Shown here piece by piece: positions 2,333-50,809 of a stretch of 53,556 nucleotides of DNA. The stretch's first letter is position 1. Every line of letters starts with the position of its first letter. The stretch lies in assembly GCA_013288575.1 (NCBI GenBank), contig JABDBO010000001.1:91-53646 (forward strand), written 5' to 3'. The notes under the pieces were generated by a model that saw only the letters and a list, made by a program, of their open reading frames with translations, did not search any database and was not told the DNA's origin. This DNA comes from Alphaproteobacteria bacterium (GTDB taxonomy: Bacteria; Pseudomonadota; Alphaproteobacteria; Rickettsiales; 21-14-0-20-44-7). The position numbers and the translations under genes were made by a program.

Positions 2333-2767
2333 ATGCCGCATTTAGAAGTTCATACATATACAGGGCAGATTTTCTGGTTAGCAGTGTGTTTCATACTGCT
2401 CTACGTCGTGATGTGGAAAGCCGTTCTGCCTGCTATATCTGGTGTTGTTGAAACGCGCGGCAAAGTTATTGCTGATGATCTTGATGCGGCGGAAAGTTTG
2501 AAAAACCAAGCGGAAGCTGTTGAGAAAAAATATGAGACATTGCTGGTGGAAACCCGCGAGCGTGCTCATAAATTAATCGACGAATCTTCGCAGAAAACCC
2601 GTGTAGTGATTGAGAAAAAACGCGCTGAACTTTCAGCCAAGCTTGATGAAAAAGTGGCTAAAGCCGAGCGTGAAATTGCATCAATTGAAAAAGCTTCGAT
2701 TGCGGCGGCTGATAAGGTTTCCGATGAGCTGGCGCAGGCGATAATTACCAAATTGAAGGTGGCGTAA
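2333..2767 (+). CDS. F0F1 ATP synthase subunit b'
   Basis: 144 aa with one N-terminal TM helix followed by a long charged coiled coil. It occupies the first of two tandem b-type genes, as in alphaproteobacteria. Confidence 0.85.
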   Translation: MPHLEVHTYTGQIFWLAVCFILLYVVMWKAVLPAISGVVETRGKVIADDLDAAESLKNQAEAVEKKYETLLVETRERAHKLIDESSQKTRVVIEKKRAELSAKLDEKVAKAEREIASIEKASIAAADKVSDELAQAIITKLKVA

Positions 2768-3261
2768 TGGATAAATTCATTCACAATCCGGCAAGCTGGG
2801 TCGCCATTGCATTTTTGATCTTTGCTTATTTCACCGTGCGTAAACTCTTCCCAAAACTGGGTTCGTCACTTGACAGCTACAGCGCTAAAATTTCCAAAGA
2901 AATTGAAGAAGCTAAAGTTTTAAAAGCAGAAGCTGAGCAGTTATTGTTAACAGCGCAGAAAAAATCAGCCGAAGCTGAGCGTACAGCGAGTGAAATTGTT
3001 GAACGCGCCAAATTTGACGCTAAGTTGATTGCCGATGAAGCGGAAAAAGATATTGAACGCGAAATCGACCGCAAAATGAAGATTGCGGAAGAAAAAATCA
3101 AGAACGCGGAAAGCGCAGCTGTTGAACATGTGCGTAACCGTGCCGTTGAAATTGCCGTAAATGCCGCCACGGAAATTTTGACGAAAGAATTACAAGCCGA
3201 AAAAACCTCGGAGAAACTGGTTGAGAAATCTATACGTCTTATTTCTAGTAACCTTAGTTAG
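2767..3261 (+). CDS. atpF: F0F1 ATP synthase subunit b
   Basis: 164 aa with an N-terminal TM helix and an A/E/K-rich coiled coil. Its start overlaps the stop of the b' gene (TAATG). Confidence 0.85.
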   Translation: MDKFIHNPASWVAIAFLIFAYFTVRKLFPKLGSSLDSYSAKISKEIEEAKVLKAEAEQLLLTAQKKSAEAERTASEIVERAKFDAKLIADEAEKDIEREIDRKMKIAEEKIKNAESAAVEHVRNRAVEIAVNAATEILTKELQAEKTSEKLVEKSIRLISSNLS

Positions 3262-4021
3262 CTTTGTTCCCACACATGCCCGGGCCGGCGCATGGTTGCA
3301 AAATGAAAATGACGGCCAGATAATTACCACCTTCCGATACTACTCTACAGATACATTCTTTACACCTGACGGTAGTAAAACCAAAATTCCCGATTTTTCC
3401 AAAACCGAAATCAACCCATATTTTGAATATGGATTGCGCAACTGGATAACCATTGGCGGTGATCTTGACCTGGCATCGGTCAGCAATGACACTCCACATT
3501 TGAAAGATATCACCGACACCAAAATAAATTCGGGCAGCATTTTTGCGCGGGCCTATTTGTATCATCAGGGAAATTATGTTGTGTCGCTAGAGCCGGGAAT
3601 AGATTTCCCTTCATCAATTGGCAGTGATTTAACCTCGGATGGTAGCAAGCCAATACCCGAACTCAAACTCAATTTCGGCTACGGTTTTGCGATGAACGGC
3701 CGCAACCATTTCTTCGACGCCAGCCTAAAATATCGCAAGCGCAGTGATGGAGGATTAGATGATATGGTAAAAGGCGAGGCGACATTGGGCTACAAACTAA
3801 GCGACGATTTTACCGCGCTAGCACAACTCTCACAGGAAGAAACTCTGGGCCCGGTTGATAAGGGAATTTCGGGCAATTACAATTTAACCAAGCCACAGCT
3901 TTCGGTGCTCTATGATTACAGTAAAAGCTTCTCGCATCAGCTTGGAGTTTTTTCAGATATTTATGGGCAGAATGTGGGTGCGGGATATGGGGTGACTTAT
4001 TCGGTTTGGTATAAGTTTTAA
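3221..4021 (+). CDS. Outer-membrane beta-barrel protein, family uncertain (MipA/OmpV-like or similar)
   Basis: TTG start preceded by a GGAG SD. It has a signal peptide (RNLYVLFLVTLVSFVPTHARA), alternating amphipathic beta-strand pattern and a C-terminal aromatic YKF. The first 41 nt overlap atpF. Confidence 0.6.
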   Translation: MRNLYVLFLVTLVSFVPTHARAGAWLQNENDGQIITTFRYYSTDTFFTPDGSKTKIPDFSKTEINPYFEYGLRNWITIGGDLDLASVSNDTPHLKDITDTKINSGSIFARAYLYHQGNYVVSLEPGIDFPSSIGSDLTSDGSKPIPELKLNFGYGFAMNGRNHFFDASLKYRKRSDGGLDDMVKGEATLGYKLSDDFTALAQLSQEETLGPVDKGISGNYNLTKPQLSVLYDYSKSFSHQLGVFSDIYGQNVGAGYGVTYSVWYKF

Positions 4022-4031
4022 TGTTATTACA

Positions 4032-4061
4032 TTGTCATTCCAGCTTTCGCCGGAATGACAA
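4032..4061. terminator. Stem-loop TTGTCATTCC(A)GC-TTTC-GC(C)GGAATGACAA downstream of the OMP gene
   Basis: I read a 10-bp perfect stem plus 2 further bp after one mismatch. There is no clear T-run, so it may be a REP-like element rather than a canonical terminator. Confidence 0.4.
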
Positions 4062-4137: not shown

Positions 4138-5961
4138 ATGCAGCAGAAAAAAATCGGAGAAATCCTAATTGAGAAAGGCGCTTTAAAGCCAATAGAGTTG
4201 GAAACAGCGCTTGAAATTCAGGCCAAAGATAACTCGATGCTGGGCAAAATTCTGGTGGGTGAAGATTATGTACGCAATTTTGATTTGCATAAAGCAATCG
4301 CCGAAAGATTTGGGCTGGAATTTGTTGATCTTATAAAAACCGCACCCGACCATGAATTATTGAAACTTGAAAATGCCGCCGATTATTTTGCTTCCGAATT
4401 CGTACCATTTCGTCAGGATGAAAATTCAATCACCATTGCTGTAACGAATATAAATGAGAAAATAAAAACCTGGGCTGCAAGTAATTATCCGAACCGGGAA
4501 GTGAAGTTTGTAATTACTTCGCCATATGATATCCGCCATGTTTTGCAGCAGCGCTTCAGCGAACATCACGATGAAGAGGCGCGGCTTTCGTTATGGAAAA
4601 AGCACCCGATTTATTCTGCGCGCCGTCTGTTTGCCAGCTATCGGCCAAATATTATTGTTCTGGCTTTGCTCTCCGCATTCACACTGGCATTTGCTTACTC
4701 ACAAGGTTTCATCTCGATAGTTTTGTTCATGAATTTCCTGTTTTTATCGGCCGTGAGTTTTAAGCTTGGCGTATTTTTACTGGGGCAGGGCAGCGAAAAA
4801 GAGTTGCCTGGCTATGATAAAGAAATTCCGGTTTACACAATATTGCTGCCGCTCTACCGCGAAATGGCGACATTGCCAAAACTGATAAATGCAATAAAGA
4901 AATTGGATTATCCTAAAGCAAAACTTGATGTGAAATTTGTCGTGGAGGCGGATGACCACATCACGATCAATGCGATTAAAAATCAGGCGCCGCCGCAATA
5001 TATGGAAATTATCGCTGTGCCGTTTTCATTGCCGCGCACCAAACCAAAAGCCTGCAATTATGCGTTGAATTTCGCGCGTGGAGAATTTGTGACGATTTAT
5101 GACGCGGAAGATTTGCCGCACCCCAGCCAGCTTAAAACCGTACTGGCAAAATTTGCGGCAAGCGACGCGTGGTTGGCCTGCGTGCAGGCGCGCTTAAATT
5201 ATTATAATTACAATGATAATATTTTAACTCGCTGGTTTGCGCTCGAATATGCGACTTGGTTTGATTCGGTAATGAAAGGCCTGGAACGCGCTAAAATGCC
5301 GATCCCGCTTGGCGGTACCAGCAATCATGTGCGCACAGACGTGCTGAAACAAATCGGCGGTTGGGATGCGTTTAATGTGACTGAGGATGCTGATTTGGGG
5401 CTGCGTTTGGCGCAGGAAGGTTATTGCACCGAAACGGTGGATTCGCTGACTTTGGAAGAGGCGCCGAATAATTTAGGGCTATGGATAAGGCAGCGCACCC
5501 GGTGGATAAAAGGTTTCATGCAAACTTATTTTGTGCACATGCGCGATATCAGAAAATTAAAACGTAATATCGGTTTGGGTGGAATTTTATCATTGCAGTT
5601 TTTAATCGGAATTCCGGTGGTGATTTATCTCACTTCACCAATATTATTAGTAGCAAGTTTGGTACTGGCAACGGGTGAAGACCCGGTAGTTATTTTCCCT
5701 CAGTGGCTCACATTATTTTGCTGGTTCAATTTTTGCTATGGCGTGGCGGCACATATTTTCATGTGCCTGGTTGCATCATTTAAAGCGATAAAACCCAACG
5801 GTGAAAGATTGTTTAAAACGCGGATGATTTTCTCATGCCTGACTTATCAGTTTTATGCGCTGTTATATATTGTCGCCGCTTTCCGTGCACTTTATCAACT
5901 GATTACAGATCCGCATTATTGGGAAAAGACGACGCACGGGCTTGCTAAAACCGGTACTTAA
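4138..5961 (+). CDS. Processive family-2 glycosyltransferase (membrane polysaccharide synthase) with an N-terminal MshEN/T2SSE_N-like domain
   Basis: The N-terminus KIGEILIEKGALKPIELETALEIQ fits the 24-residue MshEN c-di-GMP-binding motif. The GT2 core has YDAEDLP (DxD) and QRTRW (Q(R/Q)xRW). Several TM helices lie before and after the GT domain. Confidence 0.8.
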   Translation: MQQKKIGEILIEKGALKPIELETALEIQAKDNSMLGKILVGEDYVRNFDLHKAIAERFGLEFVDLIKTAPDHELLKLENAADYFASEFVPFRQDENSITIAVTNINEKIKTWAASNYPNREVKFVITSPYDIRHVLQQRFSEHHDEEARLSLWKKHPIYSARRLFASYRPNIIVLALLSAFTLAFAYSQGFISIVLFMNFLFLSAVSFKLGVFLLGQGSEKELPGYDKEIPVYTILLPLYREMATLPKLINAIKKLDYPKAKLDVKFVVEADDHITINAIKNQAPPQYMEIIAVPFSLPRTKPKACNYALNFARGEFVTIYDAEDLPHPSQLKTVLAKFAASDAWLACVQARLNYYNYNDNILTRWFALEYATWFDSVMKGLERAKMPIPLGGTSNHVRTDVLKQIGGWDAFNVTEDADLGLRLAQEGYCTETVDSLTLEEAPNNLGLWIRQRTRWIKGFMQTYFVHMRDIRKLKRNIGLGGILSLQFLIGIPVVIYLTSPILLVASLVLATGEDPVVIFPQWLTLFCWFNFCYGVAAHIFMCLVASFKAIKPNGERLFKTRMIFSCLTYQFYALLYIVAAFRALYQLITDPHYWEKTTHGLAKTGT

Positions 5962-6079
5962 GCACATTTATAGAGGCATCTACTTGAAATTTTTTGTGCT
6001 CGGAACCGTTCATGTATATTTAATACATTCAGACTCCTGTGCTAAAAAATTCCGGCGTATCTGCTCTCTATAAATATGC
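5962..6079. repeat. ~118-nt nested imperfect palindrome (repeat family copy E1)
   Basis: The outer arms are GCACATTTATAGAG / CTCTATAAATATGC and the middle arms are AATTTTTT / AAAAAATT. The central hairpin is ATGTAT-ATTTA-ATACAT. The element is related to copy E2 at 11730-11811. Confidence 0.65.
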
Positions 6080-6105
6080 TTCAGATATTTTAGTGTTTGG
6101 CAGGA

Positions 6106-6966
6106 ATGGCAAAACCTATATATGGTGAGCCTATGATAATTTCCGAATTAATAAAAAGCGCAGCGAAAAAGTTGCAAGATGTTGGCATTGATACTGCGCG
6201 GCTGGACGCAATGTTGTTGTTAGAAACTGCATTGGGAAAAAATCGTTCTTATCTGGTGGCAAACTCAGAAGCTGCAGTTTCGGAAAACGCACAAAAGCAG
6301 TTTGCAATTTTACTAAAACGCAGAATAAATCGTGAGCCGATTTCGCAAATTATCGGAAAAAAAGAATTTTATGGGCGCCAGTTCAAAGTTTCAAAAGATG
6401 TGCTAACCCCACGCCCGGAAACCGAATTTATTATTGAAGTAGCGCTCAAGCTTTTTAATAAAAACAGTGAAATCAATATATTAGACTTAGGAACTGGCAG
6501 TGGTTGCATAATCCTCACATTGCTGGCTGAAATGCCCAATGCTAAGGGTGTGGGAGTGGATAAATCAAAATCCGCGCTTGCTATTGCTGCCAAAAACGCG
6601 TATGATTTAAAAATAGAAAATGTTGAGTTTGTTCATTCTGATTGGTGTAAAAACCTAGAATCTCAACAAAAGTTTCACCTAATAGTTTCAAACCCGCCCT
6701 ACATTCCTAAAACAGAGCAAAAAACTCTGGATGCAGAGTTGGATTTTGAACCGGAAACGGCGCTATTTGGCGGAGATGATGGATTAGATTGCTATAGGCT
6801 AATAGCCAAAGAAATATCTGGTCTGAAGTTTGATTTTGCAATTCTGGAAATTGGAATAAACCAGGAAGGCGAAGTCAAAAAGATATTTGAACAATATCAA
6901 ATAAAACATAAGGAAACATTGGCCGATCTGGCTGGAATTCCGAGAGTTATAGTATTTAATAAATAG
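6106..6966 (+). CDS. prmC: Peptide chain release factor N5-glutamine methyltransferase
   Basis: It carries the SAM motif ILDLGTGSGCI and the catalytic VSNPPYIP (NPPY). The start is uncertain (TTG 6097, ATG 6106 or ATG 6133). Confidence 0.9.
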   Translation: MAKPIYGEPMIISELIKSAAKKLQDVGIDTARLDAMLLLETALGKNRSYLVANSEAAVSENAQKQFAILLKRRINREPISQIIGKKEFYGRQFKVSKDVLTPRPETEFIIEVALKLFNKNSEINILDLGTGSGCIILTLLAEMPNAKGVGVDKSKSALAIAAKNAYDLKIENVEFVHSDWCKNLESQQKFHLIVSNPPYIPKTEQKTLDAELDFEPETALFGGDDGLDCYRLIAKEISGLKFDFAILEIGINQEGEVKKIFEQYQIKHKETLADLAGIPRVIVFNK

Positions 6967-11873: not shown

Positions 11874-12068
11874 TTATGCTTGCGCTGAACCTTTTTCGAG
11901 CACATTGCGGCCATTGTAGAAGCCGTCTTTGCTTACATGGTGCGGGCGTTTGAGTTCGCCAGTTGTTGAATCTTCAACGTAACCAACTGTTTTTTTAGCA
12001 TGTTTCATGTTGGCTGATTTTCTCATGCCGGTACGTGATTTCGATTTCTTCCGCTTAGGAACTGCCAT
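11874..12068 (-). CDS. rpmF: 50S ribosomal protein L32
   Basis: 64 aa starting [18 protein letters not shown], the typical L32 N-terminus. Confidence 0.95.
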
Positions 12069-12128
12069 TTGAGCCTCTTTTTGTAATTTGGAGCGCGGTT
12101 TCTAGCATGACGCTTAATGAAAGGCAAG

Positions 12129-12233
12129 AGGTTTTAGGGCCTAGGTTCGAGGTGCTAGGTTCTAGGGATTGACTATTACAAACATTAATATAAATTCCGC
12201 TCCCTAAAACCTCGAACCTAGGCCCTAAAACCT
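12129..12233. repeat. 105-nt element with perfect 25-bp terminal inverted repeats built from 14-nt tandem units
   Basis: The left arm AGGTTTTAGGGCCTAGGTTCGAGGT (12129-12153) is the exact reverse complement of 12209-12233. Three tandem 14-mers of the form AGGTTnnAGGnnnT fill 12129-12170. The element ends 6 nt before tRNA-Val. Confidence 0.75.
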
Positions 12234-12239
12234 AGCAGA

Positions 12240-12316
12240 GGGCGGTTAGCTCAGTTGGTTAGAGCGCTACGTTGACATCGTAGAGGTCGGAGGTTCGAGT
12301 CCTCTACCGCCCACCA
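12240..12316 (+). tRNA. tRNA-Val (anticodon GAC), CCA encoded
   Basis: I folded the cloverleaf by hand. The acceptor is GGGCGGT/ACCGCCC and the D-arm is GCTC-AGTTGGTTA-GAGC. The anticodon arm is CTACG-TTGACAT-CGTAG and the T-arm is GGAGG-TTCGAGT-CCTCT. The discriminator is A and the total length is 77 nt. Confidence 0.93.
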
Positions 12317-12502
12317 TTTATGGAAATTCCCGTCAAAATAGCAATTTAGCAGCGCTGTTTCAAACAGCGGTTGAGTGCCCTAAAAAACTTTTTTCTCTTA
12401 TTTGGAAGGGCCAAATTGCAATGTGTTTGGCTAACATTTTGGTTAATTTCGCCTTAATCAGTTGGGCATAAAGTTGGGATATATCCAACGAAGGCTATAT
12501 TT

Positions 12503-12979
12503 ATGATTTTACAAATTGAGAAAACCAACCATATCAAAGCATCAAAAGATGCAGAAATTGCTCCCAACCCAATTGATATAGTTCTGGCTGAAGATAGTAT
12601 AGGCGACCAGTGCTTAACTGAAATTGCTTTGAAGAAAACTAATATCCCGCATTACTTGACCACTTATCGTAATGGAGATTTGTTATTGCCGGCATTGGTT
12701 GAACAACGCGAACAAAATAAGAAATTATTACCTGATTTGCTTCTTTTGGATATTGGCTTACCTGGCAGGAATGGTATTGATATATTGGCAGAACTCGCGC
12801 AATCTTCTCCTTCAATTAGATCAATTCCCATTGTCATTCTTACTAATTATTCTGACCTAGAATATATTTGCAGCAAACAGAATAATCTTTTCATAGTGAG
12901 TTATTTGCGCAAACCTTGTGACCCGGCGATTTTGAAAATTATAATGGAAAATATCAGGCGCTATAAATTTCCAAATTAA
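12503..12979 (+). CDS. Single-domain response regulator (CheY-like receiver)
   Basis: DIVLAEDS acidic pocket, the phospho-acceptor context LLLLDIGLPGRNG, IVILT and YLRKP (conserved Lys). There is no output domain. Confidence 0.8.
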   Translation: MILQIEKTNHIKASKDAEIAPNPIDIVLAEDSIGDQCLTEIALKKTNIPHYLTTYRNGDLLLPALVEQREQNKKLLPDLLLLDIGLPGRNGIDILAELAQSSPSIRSIPIVILTNYSDLEYICSKQNNLFIVSYLRKPCDPAILKIIMENIRRYKFPN

Positions 12980-13030
12980 AGTTAGGGCCAGATACCTTCC
13001 AGCCCTTAGGAACTTTATATTCCGGCTAGT

Positions 13031-13642
13031 TTAAGCGATAATGCTTAACAGCGTATTTGAGTTTGCTGCGGCCGCAGTTCCAGCATTAAGCAGTGAACTC
13101 AGCATATTTGATAAAATGCTGGTGTTGCCATTCGCTGCAGATGCGGATGCAGGGGTGCTCACGCTACTTGCGCTTGCATCAGTTGTGCTATCAACCGGAT
13201 CCAGATTTAAAGGATCGTTAGGATCATTACTAGTATCGGTGGCATCAGCTTTATGATGGCCGCCGCCGTGGTGATGACCTTTAACTTTGCTAGTATCTGG
13301 AAGGCTGGTGTTGCCAGCATTGGCAACAGCGGTATTGACATCAGTTGAGGGATCTGACGCCGACGAAGCTTGCGATGATTGCATCTTCGCCTGGATATAG
13401 CCCGTCACTTTCGAAAAGTTGATGCTGCCGTCTTGATTGGTGACAGCATCAGCCGCATCACTACCGAATTCCTGGCTGAAGTTGCTCAAGAATTGCTGGG
13501 TATTGATTTGGCCAGTTCCGTAAGTGCTTTGCGAGCTTTGACTTTGCTGTAAAATCGAACTTGATACAGGTTGGGCAGCGCTCATAACGCTGTTACTATA
13601 AACGTTCGGATTCCACAGTGAGGATATGCTAGATATACTCAT
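13031..13642 (-). CDS. Hypothetical S/T/N/Q-rich low-complexity protein, 203 aa, with a His/Gly cluster
   Basis: ATG at 13642 lies 7 nt after an AGGAG SD. No signal peptide is evident, and there is a KGHHHGGGHHK motif. The longer 249-aa track ORF overlaps the permease gene and lacks an SD. Confidence 0.55.
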   Translation of the reverse strand: MSISSISSLWNPNVYSNSVMSAAQPVSSSILQQSQSSQSTYGTGQINTQQFLSNFSQEFGSDAADAVTNQDGSINFSKVTGYIQAKMQSSQASSASDPSTDVNTAVANAGNTSLPDTSKVKGHHHGGGHHKADATDTSNDPNDPLNLDPVDSTTDASASSVSTPASASAANGNTSILSNMLSSLLNAGTAAAANSNTLLSIIA

Positions 13643-13748
13643 TGGTTGGCTCCTTTTTAGGTTAAAACGGGTATAGCGCACCGAAATGCGCAAAACCCAG
13701 GATTTTAGGAGCAAGATATGTGCCGGGCCAAGGCTAACTGCGGGTTTG

Positions 13749-14552
13749 CTAACTGACGCTCTCAGCGCTGTAGCGGGCAATTAGGCCGGTTTTTAGGGCG
13801 TGGTTGTAAATCTTAACGAAACACCAACAGGCGAGCATTATATATATAAGCGCAAGGGCGGCGGCGATTATAAGTGACTGAATTGAAATTCCATTTCCGG
13901 CAATAATTGAGCGCATATTTTCAAACACATATGATGGCGGAAAAATATGGGCAACAGCCTGCATCCATGAAGGCAAAGTTGAGAGCGGGTAAAACACGCC
14001 GACAAATGGCGCAATCACCGCCGGAATCGGCCAGACAAACCATTCTGAACTTGGGCCATAACGCAGCATTATCGCACAGCCGAAGATCCCCAAGCTAATG
14101 CTGAACAGAACAATCACTAATATGAATGGAATTATCATCACGCCATAAATTAACATCGACAGGCCGAACACTCCCATCGCAAGAATCAACATAACAACCA
14201 GCCCGAACATGCTGGTGGTAATTCCCGTCAAAACTAACCCGCTCAAATATTCCGATACACGCATCGGCGAGGCGAAGAGGTTTAAAAAATTGCGGCTCCA
14301 GCTATCTTCCATAAACGCCATGCTAGTGCCGTGCATAACACGCACCATAAATTCCCAAACCAAAACTGTGCCAAGTACCATCGGCACGAAATTCATATTG
14401 GTATGAGTAAATTCATTGAGGAATTTTGTCATAAAACCCCAGATGACGATGTCAATTGCCTGCCAGATAAAAAGCGGAATAACGCGCGTGACGCTGCCGC
14501 GAATAAGATAAAACTGGCGAAGCATAAGCGCGGTGATGCGGGATGTTTTCAT
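13749..14552 (-). CDS. ABC-2 type transporter permease
   Basis: 267 aa with about 6 TM helices. Its start overlaps the stop of the ATPase gene (TAATG). It shows the typical ABC-2 exporter pairing. Confidence 0.8.
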   Translation of the reverse strand: MKTSRITALMLRQFYLIRGSVTRVIPLFIWQAIDIVIWGFMTKFLNEFTHTNMNFVPMVLGTVLVWEFMVRVMHGTSMAFMEDSWSRNFLNLFASPMRVSEYLSGLVLTGITTSMFGLVVMLILAMGVFGLSMLIYGVMIIPFILVIVLFSISLGIFGCAIMLRYGPSSEWFVWPIPAVIAPFVGVFYPLSTLPSWMQAVAHIFPPSYVFENMRSIIAGNGISIQSLIIAAALALIYIMLACWCFVKIYNHALKTGLIARYSAESVS

Positions 14553-49128: not shown

Positions 49129-50171
49129 TTTGCGGCGCTGATCTGCCAGTTGATTTTTTCACCGGCGAGTAATGGAATGAGTTTGCCTTCTGGAGTTTCA
49201 ATGAATTCAGGGATTTTCTGAGGGGTTTTAGTGAGGGTGATTTTTTGCTTATTGTGGGGCAGGTTATAAAAATCAGCACCGAATTTGCTCATGAAGTTTT
49301 CGAATTTTTTCTGAGTAGCTGGTTTGCTTAAATCTTCTGTTTTATCGAAAACTTCGGCGTATAATTCAACGGCATTGAATGCGGTATAACAGCCAGCGCA
49401 GCCGCAGGAATGTTCTTTTTTGTTCTGCAGGTGAGGGGCGCTATCGGTGCCGGCGAAGAATTTGCTGGAGTCGCTTAAAGCAGCTTTTACTAATGACTTG
49501 CGATGGGTTTCGCGCTTTAGAATCGGCAGACAAAAATAATGGGGGCGAATGCCGCCGACTAGCATGTCGTTGCGGTTAAACAGCAAATGATGGGCGGTGA
49601 TTGTGGCGGCGATATTTTTGCCGGAGGCATTTATGAAATCGGCCGCTTGTGAAGTGGTAATATGTTCCAAAACAATTTTCAGAGCTGGGAATTTTTTCAC
49701 AATCGGCTGCAAAATGCGTTCGATGAAAACTGCTTCACGGTCAAAAATATCAATTTCTTTATCAGTCACTTCGCCATGAACGAGAAATAATATTCCATGT
49801 TTTTCGCAAGCTTCAATAACTTTGCTGATTTTGTTTACATCAGTCACACCCGAATCAGAATTGGTTGTCGCACCGGCTGGATATAATTTTACAGCTTTCA
49901 CCAAACCAGATTTTGCGGCTTTTTCAATTTCTTGCGGAGTTGTGTTATCGGTTAAATATAGAGACATGATCGGCTCGATATCTGCCGCTTGCTTGATGCG
50001 GTCATAATATTGAAAAGCCATATCAACCGTCGTTACCGGCGGCACCAAATTTGGCATCGCCAGTGCGCGCGAAAATTGTGCGGCAGTGTGTGGTGCTACG
50101 GTTTTAAGCATTGCGCCGTCACGTAAGTGGACGTGGAGATCGTCGGGTTTTATGATGCTGAAACTGGTCAC
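49125..50171 (-). CDS. pyrC: Dihydroorotase (homodimeric type)
   Basis: 348 aa with DDLHVHLRDG and KLYPAGATTNS. GTG start with a 4-nt overlap to the upstream gene. Its stop overlaps the lysE-family start (ATGA). Confidence 0.92.
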   Translation of the reverse strand: MTSFSIIKPDDLHVHLRDGAMLKTVAPHTAAQFSRALAMPNLVPPVTTVDMAFQYYDRIKQAADIEPIMSLYLTDNTTPQEIEKAAKSGLVKAVKLYPAGATTNSDSGVTDVNKISKVIEACEKHGILFLVHGEVTDKEIDIFDREAVFIERILQPIVKKFPALKIVLEHITTSQAADFINASGKNIAATITAHHLLFNRNDMLVGGIRPHYFCLPILKRETHRKSLVKAALSDSSKFFAGTDSAPHLQNKKEHSCGCAGCYTAFNAVELYAEVFDKTEDLSKPATQKKFENFMSKFGADFYNLPHNKQKITLTKTPQKIPEFIETPEGKLIPLLAGEKINWQISAAK

Positions 50172-50809
50172 GCTTTAAAATTTATCTGTTCGAATTTGAG
50201 TTTGCTGTTATTGACATGCATCGCATTGCTGGCGTTCAAAATTGCTGATTCAGGGTCATCAGCCGGGGTTATGGCATGCACTCCATAAGCTAATAATATA
50301 TTTACCAAACTATTATTCCAACGAAACGGCGCCTGGCGAATTTGCGCGCACATTCTTTCAGCCTTGGCTTGCACGTCAGCAAGATCGGCAAAATACATAA
50401 TTGCGCCATATTGGTTTTCATTGATGCGGGCTAGATAATCAGTATCGCGGATATTATTGGTAATGAATTCGGCCACGTAATTACCAACTCGCGACCCGGC
50501 CTGATAACCATAAGTGCGGCTAATGCTTTCAAAATCAGTAATGGAAAACACGATGATCGAGCTTGGGCCATTATAGCGTTTGTTCATGGCGATCGACCAA
50601 CTTAAGCGTTTGACGAGCGCGTGGCGGTTAGGAATAACGCTCACCGGGTCAACATCAACCATCTGCTGGATGCTTTCCAGTTGGGTTTTGGTTTGCTGCA
50701 ATTCTTTATTCAACTGGTCGATATGATCGGTTAAGCCGTTAACGGCGATGCTCACCGAGGGTGTAACCTCATGTGGAGGAATTCCTAATTCTTGCAGTTT
50801 ATCTGACAA
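50168..50809 (-). CDS. GGDEF-domain protein with degenerate active site (NENQY) and intact RxxD I-site, plus an N-terminal coiled coil
   Basis: IPNRHAL begins the domain. RDTD-YLARI-NENQYG (50408-50449) aligns with RxxD-x5-GG(D/E)EF. TTG start, overlapping the upstream ORF by 11 nt. Confidence 0.7.
   Translation of the reverse strand: MSDKLQELGIPPHEVTPSVSIAVNGLTDHIDQLNKELQQTKTQLESIQQMVDVDPVSVIPNRHALVKRLSWSIAMNKRYNGPSSIIVFSITDFESISRTYGYQAGSRVGNYVAEFITNNIRDTDYLARINENQYGAIMYFADLADVQAKAERMCAQIRQAPFRWNNSLVNILLAYGVHAITPADDPESAILNASNAMHVNNSKLKFEQINFKA

Follow-up and report, generated by a model that had tools for sequence, protein, structure and literature searches.

The genes at 3221-4021 and 4138-5961 of the window (the whole 53,556-nucleotide stretch analysed here) probably form a two-gene xagA-xagB module, in which a processive synthase would be switched by c-di-GMP through an MshEN domain and its product exported through XagA; the probability of this reading is put at roughly 65%. 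XagB would be an inner-membrane processive family-2 glycosyltransferase (GT2) that polymerises a nucleotide-sugar at the cytoplasmic face, as BcsA and hyaluronan synthase do, and threads the growing chain through its own transmembrane helices. The cytoplasmic MshEN is proposed to bind one c-di-GMP between its two tandem 24-residue motifs, and binding would allosterically turn XagB on, as in the reverse-order relative NfrB. The 12-stranded XagA barrel might then carry the chain across the outer membrane. The analogy with NfrB (PMC8669469) makes direct activation through MshEN the reading with the best support, although no demonstration of c-di-GMP binding by any XagB-type protein was found in the literature searched.

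If an XagB-type MshEN does bind c-di-GMP, the family would join the PilZ-bearing BcsA and the NfrB type as a third kind of glycan synthase gated by c-di-GMP through a fused receptor. Among its members are candidate genes for biofilm formation in Xanthomonas and for stalk formation in iron-oxidising bacteria. Alone, the copy in the window adds little, being an orthodox member of a family for which published work and curated domain models already contain the idea. It is of modest value as a stripped-down two-gene version, which would be convenient for reconstitution, and as part of a natural series running from genomes that keep the sensor domain to others in which it is degenerate or lost, alongside the GGDEF repertoire.

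Gene layout and domain architecture of the synthase

The genes and the membrane segments of the synthase are laid out as follows.

3221-4021, forward strand: xagA-like gene, 266 aa, predicted 12-stranded outer-membrane beta-barrel (ORF list, AF2 model, HMM)
4032-4061, forward strand: intergenic hairpin (GTCATTCC…GGAATGAC) with no T-run, between the barrel gene and the synthase gene (sequence reading)
4138-5961, forward strand: xagB-like gene, MshEN-GT2 membrane synthase, 607 aa (open ORF, profile searches, AF2 model, fold matches)
4639-4785, forward strand: two N-terminal transmembrane helices, about residues 168-216 (hydropathy; AF2 helices 168-186 and 188-215)
5566-5907, forward strand: C-terminal hydrophobic helices, putative translocation channel, about residues 477-514, 526-551 and 563-590 (hydropathy, AF2, fold matches)

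The synthase frame is open from end to end and translates to 607 residues. The earlier note had read it as an N-terminal MshEN joined to a membrane-embedded GT2, and this architecture is borne out by matches above the Pfam and NCBIfam cut-offs and by five hydrophobic helices. Profile searches placed the N-terminus in MshEN (PF05157; 38.0 bits against a cut-off of 23.1, E 1.7e-9, residues 58-144) and the glycosyltransferase part in Glyco_tranf_2_3 (85.9 bits). The NCBIfam model NF053729 ('c-di-GMP_motif') matched residues 5-56 at 42.1 bits against a cut-off of 38 (E 5.5e-11) and scored 45.8 bits on the synthase in a genome-wide scan. Because PF05157 and NF053729 both score above their curated cut-offs, the MshEN match is not a chance one. 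A PDB sequence search led from the N-terminus to the c-di-GMP-binding domain of PilF and to MshE (5HTL), and from the glycosyltransferase part to BcsA.

In the AF2 model of the synthase (pLDDT 94.4, pTM 0.92), residues 6-57 form a four-helix bundle, and the rest comprises an alpha/beta subdomain, a GT-A domain and the five hydrophobic helices. The C-terminal three span residues 480-511, 522-549 and 570-590 in the model, and fold matches to BcsA and hyaluronan synthases support their assignment as a channel. Promoter and terminator scans around the synthase gene returned nothing above shuffled background, and the terminator scan reported nothing at the intergenic hairpin. The xagA-like gene begins at a TTG codon 41 nt inside the end of atpF (2767-3261), an overlap that suggests housekeeping-like expression.

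The putative MshEN sensor and its retention among relatives

The sensor domain is divided into two motifs, a spacer and a C-terminal subdomain.

4150-4221, forward strand: MshEN motif I, residues 5-28, KIGEILIEKGALKPIELETALEIQ (translation against the relaxed census motif, PMC5013675)
4222-4236, forward strand: spacer AKDNS, 5 residues, between motif I and motif II
4237-4308, forward strand: MshEN motif II, residues 34-57, MLGKILVGEDYVRNFDLHKAIAER (translation, alignment)
4309-4569, forward strand: MshEN_C subdomain, alpha/beta unit, residues 58-144 (PF05157, AF2 secondary structure)

MshEN_N consists of two 24-residue motifs separated by five residues (PMC5013675), and the synthase N-terminus has this 24+5+24 layout. 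Motif I reads as the earlier note had it and agrees with the relaxed census motif at every constrained position. The 23 closest homologues show no variation at position 3 (G), 6 (L), 17 (L), 21 (L) or 24 (Q), and only L or I occurs at position 2. The second copy, previously described as looser, is present, but that description needs correcting: it is a genuine motif II in exact register, with clade-fixed deviations. These are M at position 1, D at position 10 and R at position 24, of which the first two fall outside the relaxed census motif and the third is allowed by it. Near-clade sequences have L/K/M/I/H at position 1, N/D at position 10 and K/R at position 24, whereas the wider family has R/K, G and H/Q, respectively. 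Judged from these alignments, the deviations are fixed in the surrounding clade and do not look like random decay. Near-clade identity is 52% in MshEN_N versus 30% in the linker/TM region.

In the AF2 model the four-helix bundle is formed by helices 6-12, 18-31, 35-41 and 47-57, followed by a beta/alpha region over residues 77-139, at a pLDDT of about 95. The secondary structure of MshEN_C runs H77-86, E88-93, E97-102, H107-116, E121-126 and H129-139. For the hydrophobic residue that opens motif II, PilF GSPII-B offers a tested precedent (PMC11731258); none was found for Asp at position 10, or for Arg in place of the terminal Gln, in the literature searched.

A motif match alone is not proof of binding, since PilF GSPII-A, a near-consensus GSPII domain, does not bind c-di-GMP (PMC12002112). 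The MshEN of this clade might no longer sense c-di-GMP and might be kept as a structural, oligomerisation or partner-binding domain, or for another ligand, with the synthase constitutive or otherwise controlled. This alternative is unlikely but deserves the most weight among the rivals. Motif II departs from consensus at three key positions, fixed in the clade, and PilF GSPII-A loses binding through small deviations plus context (PMC12002112). The same synthase occurs with a degenerate or deleted MshEN_N in related genomes and so can work without it; the xagA start inside the end of atpF points the same way, toward housekeeping-like expression. Against a non-sensing domain, motif I is fully canonical and its key positions are invariant in the clade, the NF053729 cut-off is passed, the Lys/hydrophobic pattern at the first motif positions is that of the tightest known binder, PilF GSPII-B, and several GGDEF proteins are encoded in the genus.

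Diguanylate-cyclase-type genes occur in the genus. The window's own genome, 58% complete, has a single GGDEF domain, which is catalytically degenerate, and no EAL domain in its assembled part. A same-genus genome has six GGDEF matches. The idea that the host has no c-di-GMP was rejected in view of these six matches and the incompleteness of the assembly. A synthase match was present in 33 genomes, and the N-terminus was examined in all but G015, which has only a stop-riddled remnant, leaving 32. Canonical tandem xLG motifs were found in 20 genomes, all of them with at least three GGDEF matches, and MshEN_N was degenerate or missing in all seven genomes with two or fewer (both hand-checked), a pattern that is confounded by genome reduction and shared ancestry. 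An extension of this link to 150 genomes via NF053729 was dropped because the model also matches other ORFs, which presumably encode pilus or secretion ATPases. Motif retention scored in this way is not a clean proxy: G007 and G026, both GGDEF-less, still give scores above the cut-off, with the motif surviving there on other ORFs of about 600 aa.

Catalytic domain, barrel and proposed export

The catalytic part carries the following features.

4828-5538, forward strand: GT-A (GT2) catalytic domain, residues 231-467 (Pfam, invariant columns, fold matches, motif scan)
5038-5061, forward strand: TKPKACNY, within the GT-A domain
5101-5112, forward strand: DAED, residues 322-325, within the GT-A domain
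5380-5388, forward strand: TED, residues 415-417, within the GT-A domain
5491-5505, forward strand: QRTRW, residues 452-456, within the GT-A domain
5920-5940, forward strand: C-terminal motif WEKTTHG, family-invariant, with W595, T598 and H600 invariant (alignment columns)

DAED and QRTRW lie where they had first been reported, and the signatures of a processive synthase, also claimed at that stage, prove complete: D, DxD, TED and QxxRW all occur, and transmembrane helices flank the domain. Residues D322, D325, T415, E416, D417, Q452, R455 and W456 are invariant among 64 homologues. The best Foldseek matches of the AF2 model are BcsA, the Xenopus and Chlorella-virus hyaluronan synthases and chitin synthases (E 5e-13 to 1e-7), and PcManGT is also among the best. 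The C-terminal WEKTTHG may be the equivalent of a gating loop.

The earlier note had stated that no export genes flank the synthase. This is wrong, as the gene directly upstream, at 3221-4021, encodes an XagA-homologous predicted barrel that is syntenic with the synthase. The protein has a signal peptide (…THARA|GAW) and a C-terminal …WYKF, whose terminal Phe is invariant in a 14-sequence alignment. Pfam gave no match for it. Its AF2 model (pLDDT 86.5, pTM 0.81) is all-beta with 12 strands, and its best PDB folds are the COG4313 channel 4RL8 (TM 0.70) and FapF (TM 0.57-0.65 over its chains). Members of the COG4313 family are presumed to take up hydrophobic compounds. An HMM of the barrel finds, at 2e-27, the ORF that immediately precedes Xanthomonas xagB, in the xagA position of the published xagABCD operon, and also matches the synthase-neighbouring ORF in about 30 further named loci. 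The barrel gene adjoins the synthase across many diderm phyla; no monoderm locus shows this pairing.

Export through XagA would still have to account for the periplasm. XagA has no periplasmic TPR domain. XagC and the GH113 protein XagD were not found in the window's own genome, which is 58% complete, or in four relatives (genomes searched: G000, G001, G002, G004 and G010). Together, these absences count against the main model. Weak XagD-like GH113 matches in G001, G002 and G004 were rejected: the protein that gives them is a 1,210-aa GTA_TIM/phage-tail component of a gene transfer agent.

The GH113 gene of the Xanthomonas operon is the sole hint of a beta-mannan-like polymer. A guess at the polymer from precursor pathways was rejected, as these do not discriminate between candidates: GalU is present in the window's own genome, and a full GDP-mannose pyrophosphorylase/isomerase occurs only in G001, with shorter matches elsewhere.

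The barrel's fold bears on a second, quite improbable alternative, in which the enzyme is a non-processive membrane GT2 that adds a single sugar to a lipid or other acceptor (of the monoglucosyl-diacylglycerol or ceramide-glucosyltransferase type) and the barrel's cargo is a hydrophobic molecule. The COG4313 channel as the barrel's best fold match would suit this role, an XagB-like gene has been auto-annotated as a beta-monoglucosyldiacylglycerol synthase (PMC4643136), and Glyco_transf_21 gives a weak match to the synthase (20.8 bits, below its cut-off). The complete catalytic set with flanking transmembrane helices argues for processivity instead, as do the processive synthases that head the fold matches, the EPS- and biofilm-linked phenotype of the Xanthomonas xag genes (PMC3609779) and the GH113 glycan hydrolase in the Xanthomonas operon.

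Least probable of all is that c-di-GMP binds the synthase and inhibits or relocalises it with no activation: the MshEN sits at the opposite end of the protein from NfrB's, so that the allosteric path must differ, but the characterised c-di-GMP-controlled synthases in the literature searched (NfrB, cellulose synthase and PGA synthase) are all activated, and xag-dependent biofilm arises in a Xanthomonas rpfG (HD-GYP) mutant (PMC3609779).

A broader proposal builds on the c-di-GMP-activated module, and the odds are somewhat against it. In this small-genome alphaproteobacterial order, xagA-xagB might be a complete minimal synthase-dependent exopolysaccharide system, made up of a single inner-membrane synthase and a bare 12-stranded barrel, that has no TPR scaffold, periplasmic partner or hydrolase. 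The barrel gene, at least, would be co-transcribed with the F0 ATP-synthase genes; control would be exerted largely by c-di-GMP on an arginine-free, PilF-GSPII-B-like MshEN, and the sensor would decay or be deleted where diguanylate cyclases are lost.

Relationship to known systems

On sequence grounds, the synthase belongs squarely to the very large XagB/Sfz2 family, and its MshEN-GT2 fusion is not new. Full-length relatives number at least 7,998 matches, and the family occurs in Proteobacteria, Bacteroidota, Firmicutes, Actinomycetota, Chloroflexota, Cyanobacteria and Thermotogota. Several homologues are named 'glycosyltransferase XagB' by JGI. The MshEN census of Wang et al. (2016; PMC5013675) already aligned XCC0678, an N-terminal-MshEN protein with the XagB-family signature sequence. 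The stalk clusters of iron-oxidisers encode further members of the XagB/XagA family, Sfz2/Sfb2.

The closest parallel is the xag operon of Xanthomonas. Identity to Xanthomonas XagB is 41-42% over residues 6-604 (loci L039 and L044; E 9e-143 and 3e-136). Both proteins are about 600-635 aa with the order MshEN, two transmembrane helices, GT2 and further transmembrane helices, both have all family-invariant residues, and both are preceded directly by a homologous small barrel gene. The extra biofilm of an X. oryzae pv. oryzicola mutant in rpfG, which encodes an HD-GYP protein, depends on both xagA and xagB (PMC3609779). Relative to xagABCD, in which XagC is a 452-aa protein without a Pfam match and XagD is a GH113 protein, the module here is reduced to two genes. 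The barrel is also shorter, at 266 aa versus 340 aa in Xanthomonas XagA, its gene overlaps the end of the F0 ATP-synthase operon, and motif II has clade-specific substitutions.

NfrB/NfrA, the N4 glycan receptor system of E. coli, likewise pairs a GT2 (DxD, TED, QxxRW) fused to MshEN with an outer-membrane partner. The MshEN of NfrB binds c-di-GMP and binding is required for function, the enzyme being activated by c-di-GMP (PMC8669469, 2021). The order is reversed in NfrB, with GT2 N-terminal and MshEN C-terminal, and NfrA is a large TPR-plus-barrel protein, whereas XagA here is a bare 12-stranded barrel. The synthase falls short of the NfrB model NF008411, scoring 45.8 bits against a cut-off of 1170, through the MshEN part only.

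BcsA likewise joins a membrane-embedded processive GT2 fold to a c-di-GMP receptor in one protein, and the glycosyltransferase part has it among its best matches by fold and by sequence. Its receptor is a C-terminal PilZ domain rather than MshEN; no PilZ was found in the synthase or the assembled genome, and no BcsB partner was seen next to the synthase gene. The synthase also falls short of the BcsA model TIGR03030, at 71.4 bits against a cut-off of 699.1.

Among solved structures, the nearest relative of the sensor (residues 4-130) is PilF GSPII-B of Thermus thermophilus (PDB 8PDK, 8PKZ, 8PQU). Its motif I begins with Lys and its motif II with Leu, and it binds c-di-GMP with a KD of 6 nM (PMC11731258). 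The two motifs of the synthase similarly begin with Lys (K5) and a hydrophobic residue (M34). GSPII-B differs in being part of a pilus ATPase and in keeping the turn Gly and terminal Gln of motif II, where the synthase has Asp and Arg.

An MshEN module joined to a GT2 synthase

The XagB-like synthase gene (window 4138-5961, +) spans 607 open codons and starts at the first ATG downstream of a stop. The following motifs are read directly from it:

4150-4221, +, first MshEN motif (motif I), residues 5-28, reading KIGEILIEKGALKPIELETALEIQ
5101-5112, +, DAED
5380-5388, +, TED
5491-5505, +, QRTRW

Motif I is followed by a five-residue spacer, AKDNS, and a second 24-residue copy (motif II, residues 34-57). 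This 24+5+24 layout is the defining arrangement of the c-di-GMP-binding half of MshEN (PMC5013675). Profile searches pass the curated thresholds, with 38.0 bits against Pfam MshEN (residues 58-144; cut-off 23.1), 42.1 bits against NCBIfam NF053729, "cyclic di-GMP-binding domain, MshE-related" (residues 5-56; cut-off 38), and 85.9 bits against Glyco_tranf_2_3 (residues 233-459). The MshEN and GT2 assignments are confirmed far beyond chance; motif I, DAED and QRTRW all lie where the earlier note had placed them, and the second MshEN copy it had glimpsed is present.

An AlphaFold2 model built from a 64-sequence alignment (pLDDT 94.4, pTM 0.92) begins with a four-helix bundle (residues 6-57) and an alpha/beta subdomain (77-139), continues through an amphipathic helix and two transmembrane helices (~168-216), and ends with a GT-A domain and three more long hydrophobic helices (477-590). 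Its best PDB fold matches by Foldseek are BcsA, the Xenopus and Chlorella-virus hyaluronan synthases, chitin synthases and the mannosyltransferase PcManGT, all membrane-embedded GT2 enzymes, the majority of which polymerise and translocate a glycan. Among the 64 homologues 68 alignment columns are invariant, including D322, D325, T415-E416-D417, Q452, R455, W456 and a C-terminal W595/T598/H600 motif. The predicted identity as a processive GT2 synthase, also proposed in the earlier note, is well founded because fold matches and invariant motifs both point to it.

Ligand binding by the MshEN domain

Motif I is canonical: G3, L6, L17, L21 and Q24 (numbered within the motif) are invariant among the 23 closest homologues, where position 2 is always L/I and position 1 always K/R. 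Three positions of motif II set it apart from the wider family, and the changes are fixed in this near clade. Position 1 is M (clade L/K/M/I/H versus R/K in the wider family), position 10 is D (N/D versus G) and position 24 is R (K/R versus H/Q). Because identity within the clade is 52% in MshEN_N versus 30% in the linker and transmembrane region, the domain is under constraint and not decaying.

Of the solved structures, the one most closely related to residues 4-130 is Thermus PilF GSPII-B, which carries Lys and Leu at the first positions of its two motifs, where the synthase has K5 and M34. The KD of PilF GSPII-B for c-di-GMP is 6 nM, which makes it a tighter binder than MshE, and restoring Arg at either first position weakens binding (PMC11731258); K5 and M34 are thus no argument against binding. 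For Asp at the motif II turn position, or Arg replacing the terminal Gln, no tested case was found in the literature. PilF GSPII-A is near-consensus in sequence yet does not bind c-di-GMP (PMC12002112). We put the probability that the MshEN domain of the synthase binds c-di-GMP at a physiologically relevant level at roughly 0.65-0.7.

The supply of ligand was surveyed in the window's genome as assembled (1.05 Mb, 93 contigs, 58% complete). It contains no EAL or PilZ domain and a single GGDEF domain:

50168-50809, -, GGDEF-domain protein of 213 aa with a coiled-coil-like N-terminus

Besides its active site, which reads NENQY where relatives have GGEEF, changes affect the metal and substrate residues (DxDxF…ND). 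The RxxD inhibitory site (RDTD) is retained in register, and the protein may be a c-di-GMP receptor rather than a cyclase. Two related genomes (G001, G004) preserve it as a ~215-aa ORF. Since a same-genus genome (91% complete) has six GGDEF matches and the count is 3-10 in most members of the order, c-di-GMP signalling is expected in this organism.

Of the 33 related genomes that match the synthase, 32 were compared at the N-terminus of the protein; in the other, G015, the gene is just a stop-riddled remnant. Canonical tandem xLG motifs occur in 20 genomes, each with at least three GGDEF matches, and MshEN_N is degenerate or absent in all seven genomes with two or fewer. G006, with no GGDEF match, has both motif glycines replaced (E, T). 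G017 and G028 have four and three GGDEF matches, yet degenerate motifs; GGDEF-less G007 and G026 retain an NF053729-type motif on other ORFs of ~600 aa. The pattern fits a sensor kept only where c-di-GMP is made, and is weak evidence for it because the genomes share kinship and genome reduction strips many genes together. The synthase gene itself appears to be decaying in G015 (contig C12:24481-25227; residues 350-604 interrupted by seven in-frame stops) and in G027 (C13:31052-32197; one TGA, N-terminus missing).

An XagA-like barrel and a proposed export route

The earlier note saw no export genes beside the synthase, a claim overturned by the gene directly upstream, an xagA homologue with a putative role in export:

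3221-4021, +, XagA-like barrel ORF of 266 aa with a TTG start, beginning 41 nt within the end of atpF

The protein has a signal peptide ending …ARA|GAW and a C-terminus reading …WYKF; a Pfam search of its 266 aa gave no match. Its AF2 model (pLDDT 86.5, pTM 0.81) folds entirely into beta structure, a barrel of 12 strands. By fold it most resembles the 12-stranded COG4313 channel 4RL8 (TM 0.70), together with FapF, an amyloid exporter (TM 0.57-0.65 across chains). In relatives from at least six GTDB families of the same order, the gene immediately preceding the synthase is a homologue of the barrel gene, a pairing that persists down to ~43% synthase identity. In Xanthomonas, an HMM of the barrel protein matches the ORF that immediately precedes xagB (2e-27), the position of xagA in the published xagABCD operon. 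It also matches synthase-adjacent ORFs in Acidobacteriota, Nitrospinota, Aquificota, Synergistota, Gemmatimonadota, Ignavibacteria and Pedobacter, and none in the monoderm synthase loci (Paenibacillus, Cohnella, Actinomycetota, Chloroflexota). This diderm-only spread fits a role at the outer membrane.

The MshEN domain, N-terminal to the first transmembrane helix and with the GT domain following the second, would be cytoplasmic and bind one c-di-GMP, which might lift autoinhibition of the GT2 domain by analogy with NfrB and BcsA. A nucleotide sugar would then be polymerised and the chain threaded through the synthase's own helices, as its fold and motifs suggest. Conserved synteny, diderm-only distribution and the barrel fold suggest that XagA would conduct the chain across the outer membrane.

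Beyond xagAB, the Xanthomonas operon encodes xagC (452 aa, without a Pfam match) and xagD, a GH113 hydrolase; neither was found in the window's genome or four relatives. GH113 is a beta-mannanase family, and this is the only hint at the polymer. GalU is present in the window's genome, and the GDP-mannose enzyme is complete only in a sister genome.

At its start the barrel gene shares 41 nt with the final codons of the second F0 b-subunit gene (2767-3261). The overlap recurs in two related loci (41 nt in L003, 4655-5915; 17 nt in L004, 4644-5970), and the predicted envelope/export gene is thus appended to an atpIBEFF' operon in an arrangement conserved in the family. Relatives have a second MshEN protein ~4 kb downstream of the synthase, an MshEN-T2SSE ATPase of ~690 aa (L004, whose synthase is 57% identical, 11888-13860; G002, C26:2408-2569), placing two MshEN-type receptors close together in such genomes. 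The prmC (hemK) gene adjoins the synthase downstream in the window (5961-6966) and upstream in L006 (4903-7827), where the synthase is 44% identical and has no barrel gene beside it; the synteny is old, and nothing obvious ties the two genes functionally. Elsewhere in the small genomes G001 (L135, contig C2, 1481-5113), G002 and G004, a 1,210-aa protein of the gene-transfer-agent host-specificity type (GTA_TIM, Phage-tail_3, Rcc01698_C) is adjoined by DUF2793 and DUF2748 genes.

Relation to known MshEN-glycosyltransferases

When 5.8 billion proteins were searched and 8,000 candidates scored, at least 7,998 of the candidates matched over the full length. Most bear PF05157 and GT2 families, and several carry the JGI name "glycosyltransferase XagB". 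With each species represented by a single genome, a scan found full-length relatives at 35-45% identity over residues ~2-607 in many groups. Carriers include Rickettsiales-labelled MAGs, Lacibacterium, Devosia, sphingomonads, Sulfitobacter, Xanthomonas, Mariprofundus, Mucilaginibacter, Pedobacter, Paenibacillus, Actinomycetota, Chloroflexota, cyanobacteria and Thermotogota. Identity to Xanthomonas XagB is 42% over residues 6-604.

The enhanced biofilm of an X. oryzae pv. oryzicola rpfG (HD-GYP) mutant requires xagA and xagB (PMC3609779). Sfz2, a homologue in stalk-forming iron oxidisers, was described as an "N-terminal EpsE-like T2SS domain plus GT2" (PMC8250860; PMC4643136). MshEN-glycosyltransferase fusions are stated in the main text of Wang et al. 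2016, whose supplement includes X. campestris XCC0678 among its aligned MshEN proteins, with a motif beginning at residue 14 and running on as …FGLQFVDLVQQPPDPELL (PMC5013675). That continuation is the signature of the XagB family, and we infer that XCC0678 is XagB. The earlier note's interpretation is largely right but not new, given the XagB family, Wang et al. 2016 and NfrB. Because XagB-family relatives are widespread and the literature already holds the pieces, the fusion is of a known kind, of which the window synthase is an orthodox member. NfrB likewise binds c-di-GMP through MshEN and requires that binding for function (PMC8669469), although its domain order is the reverse of that seen here.
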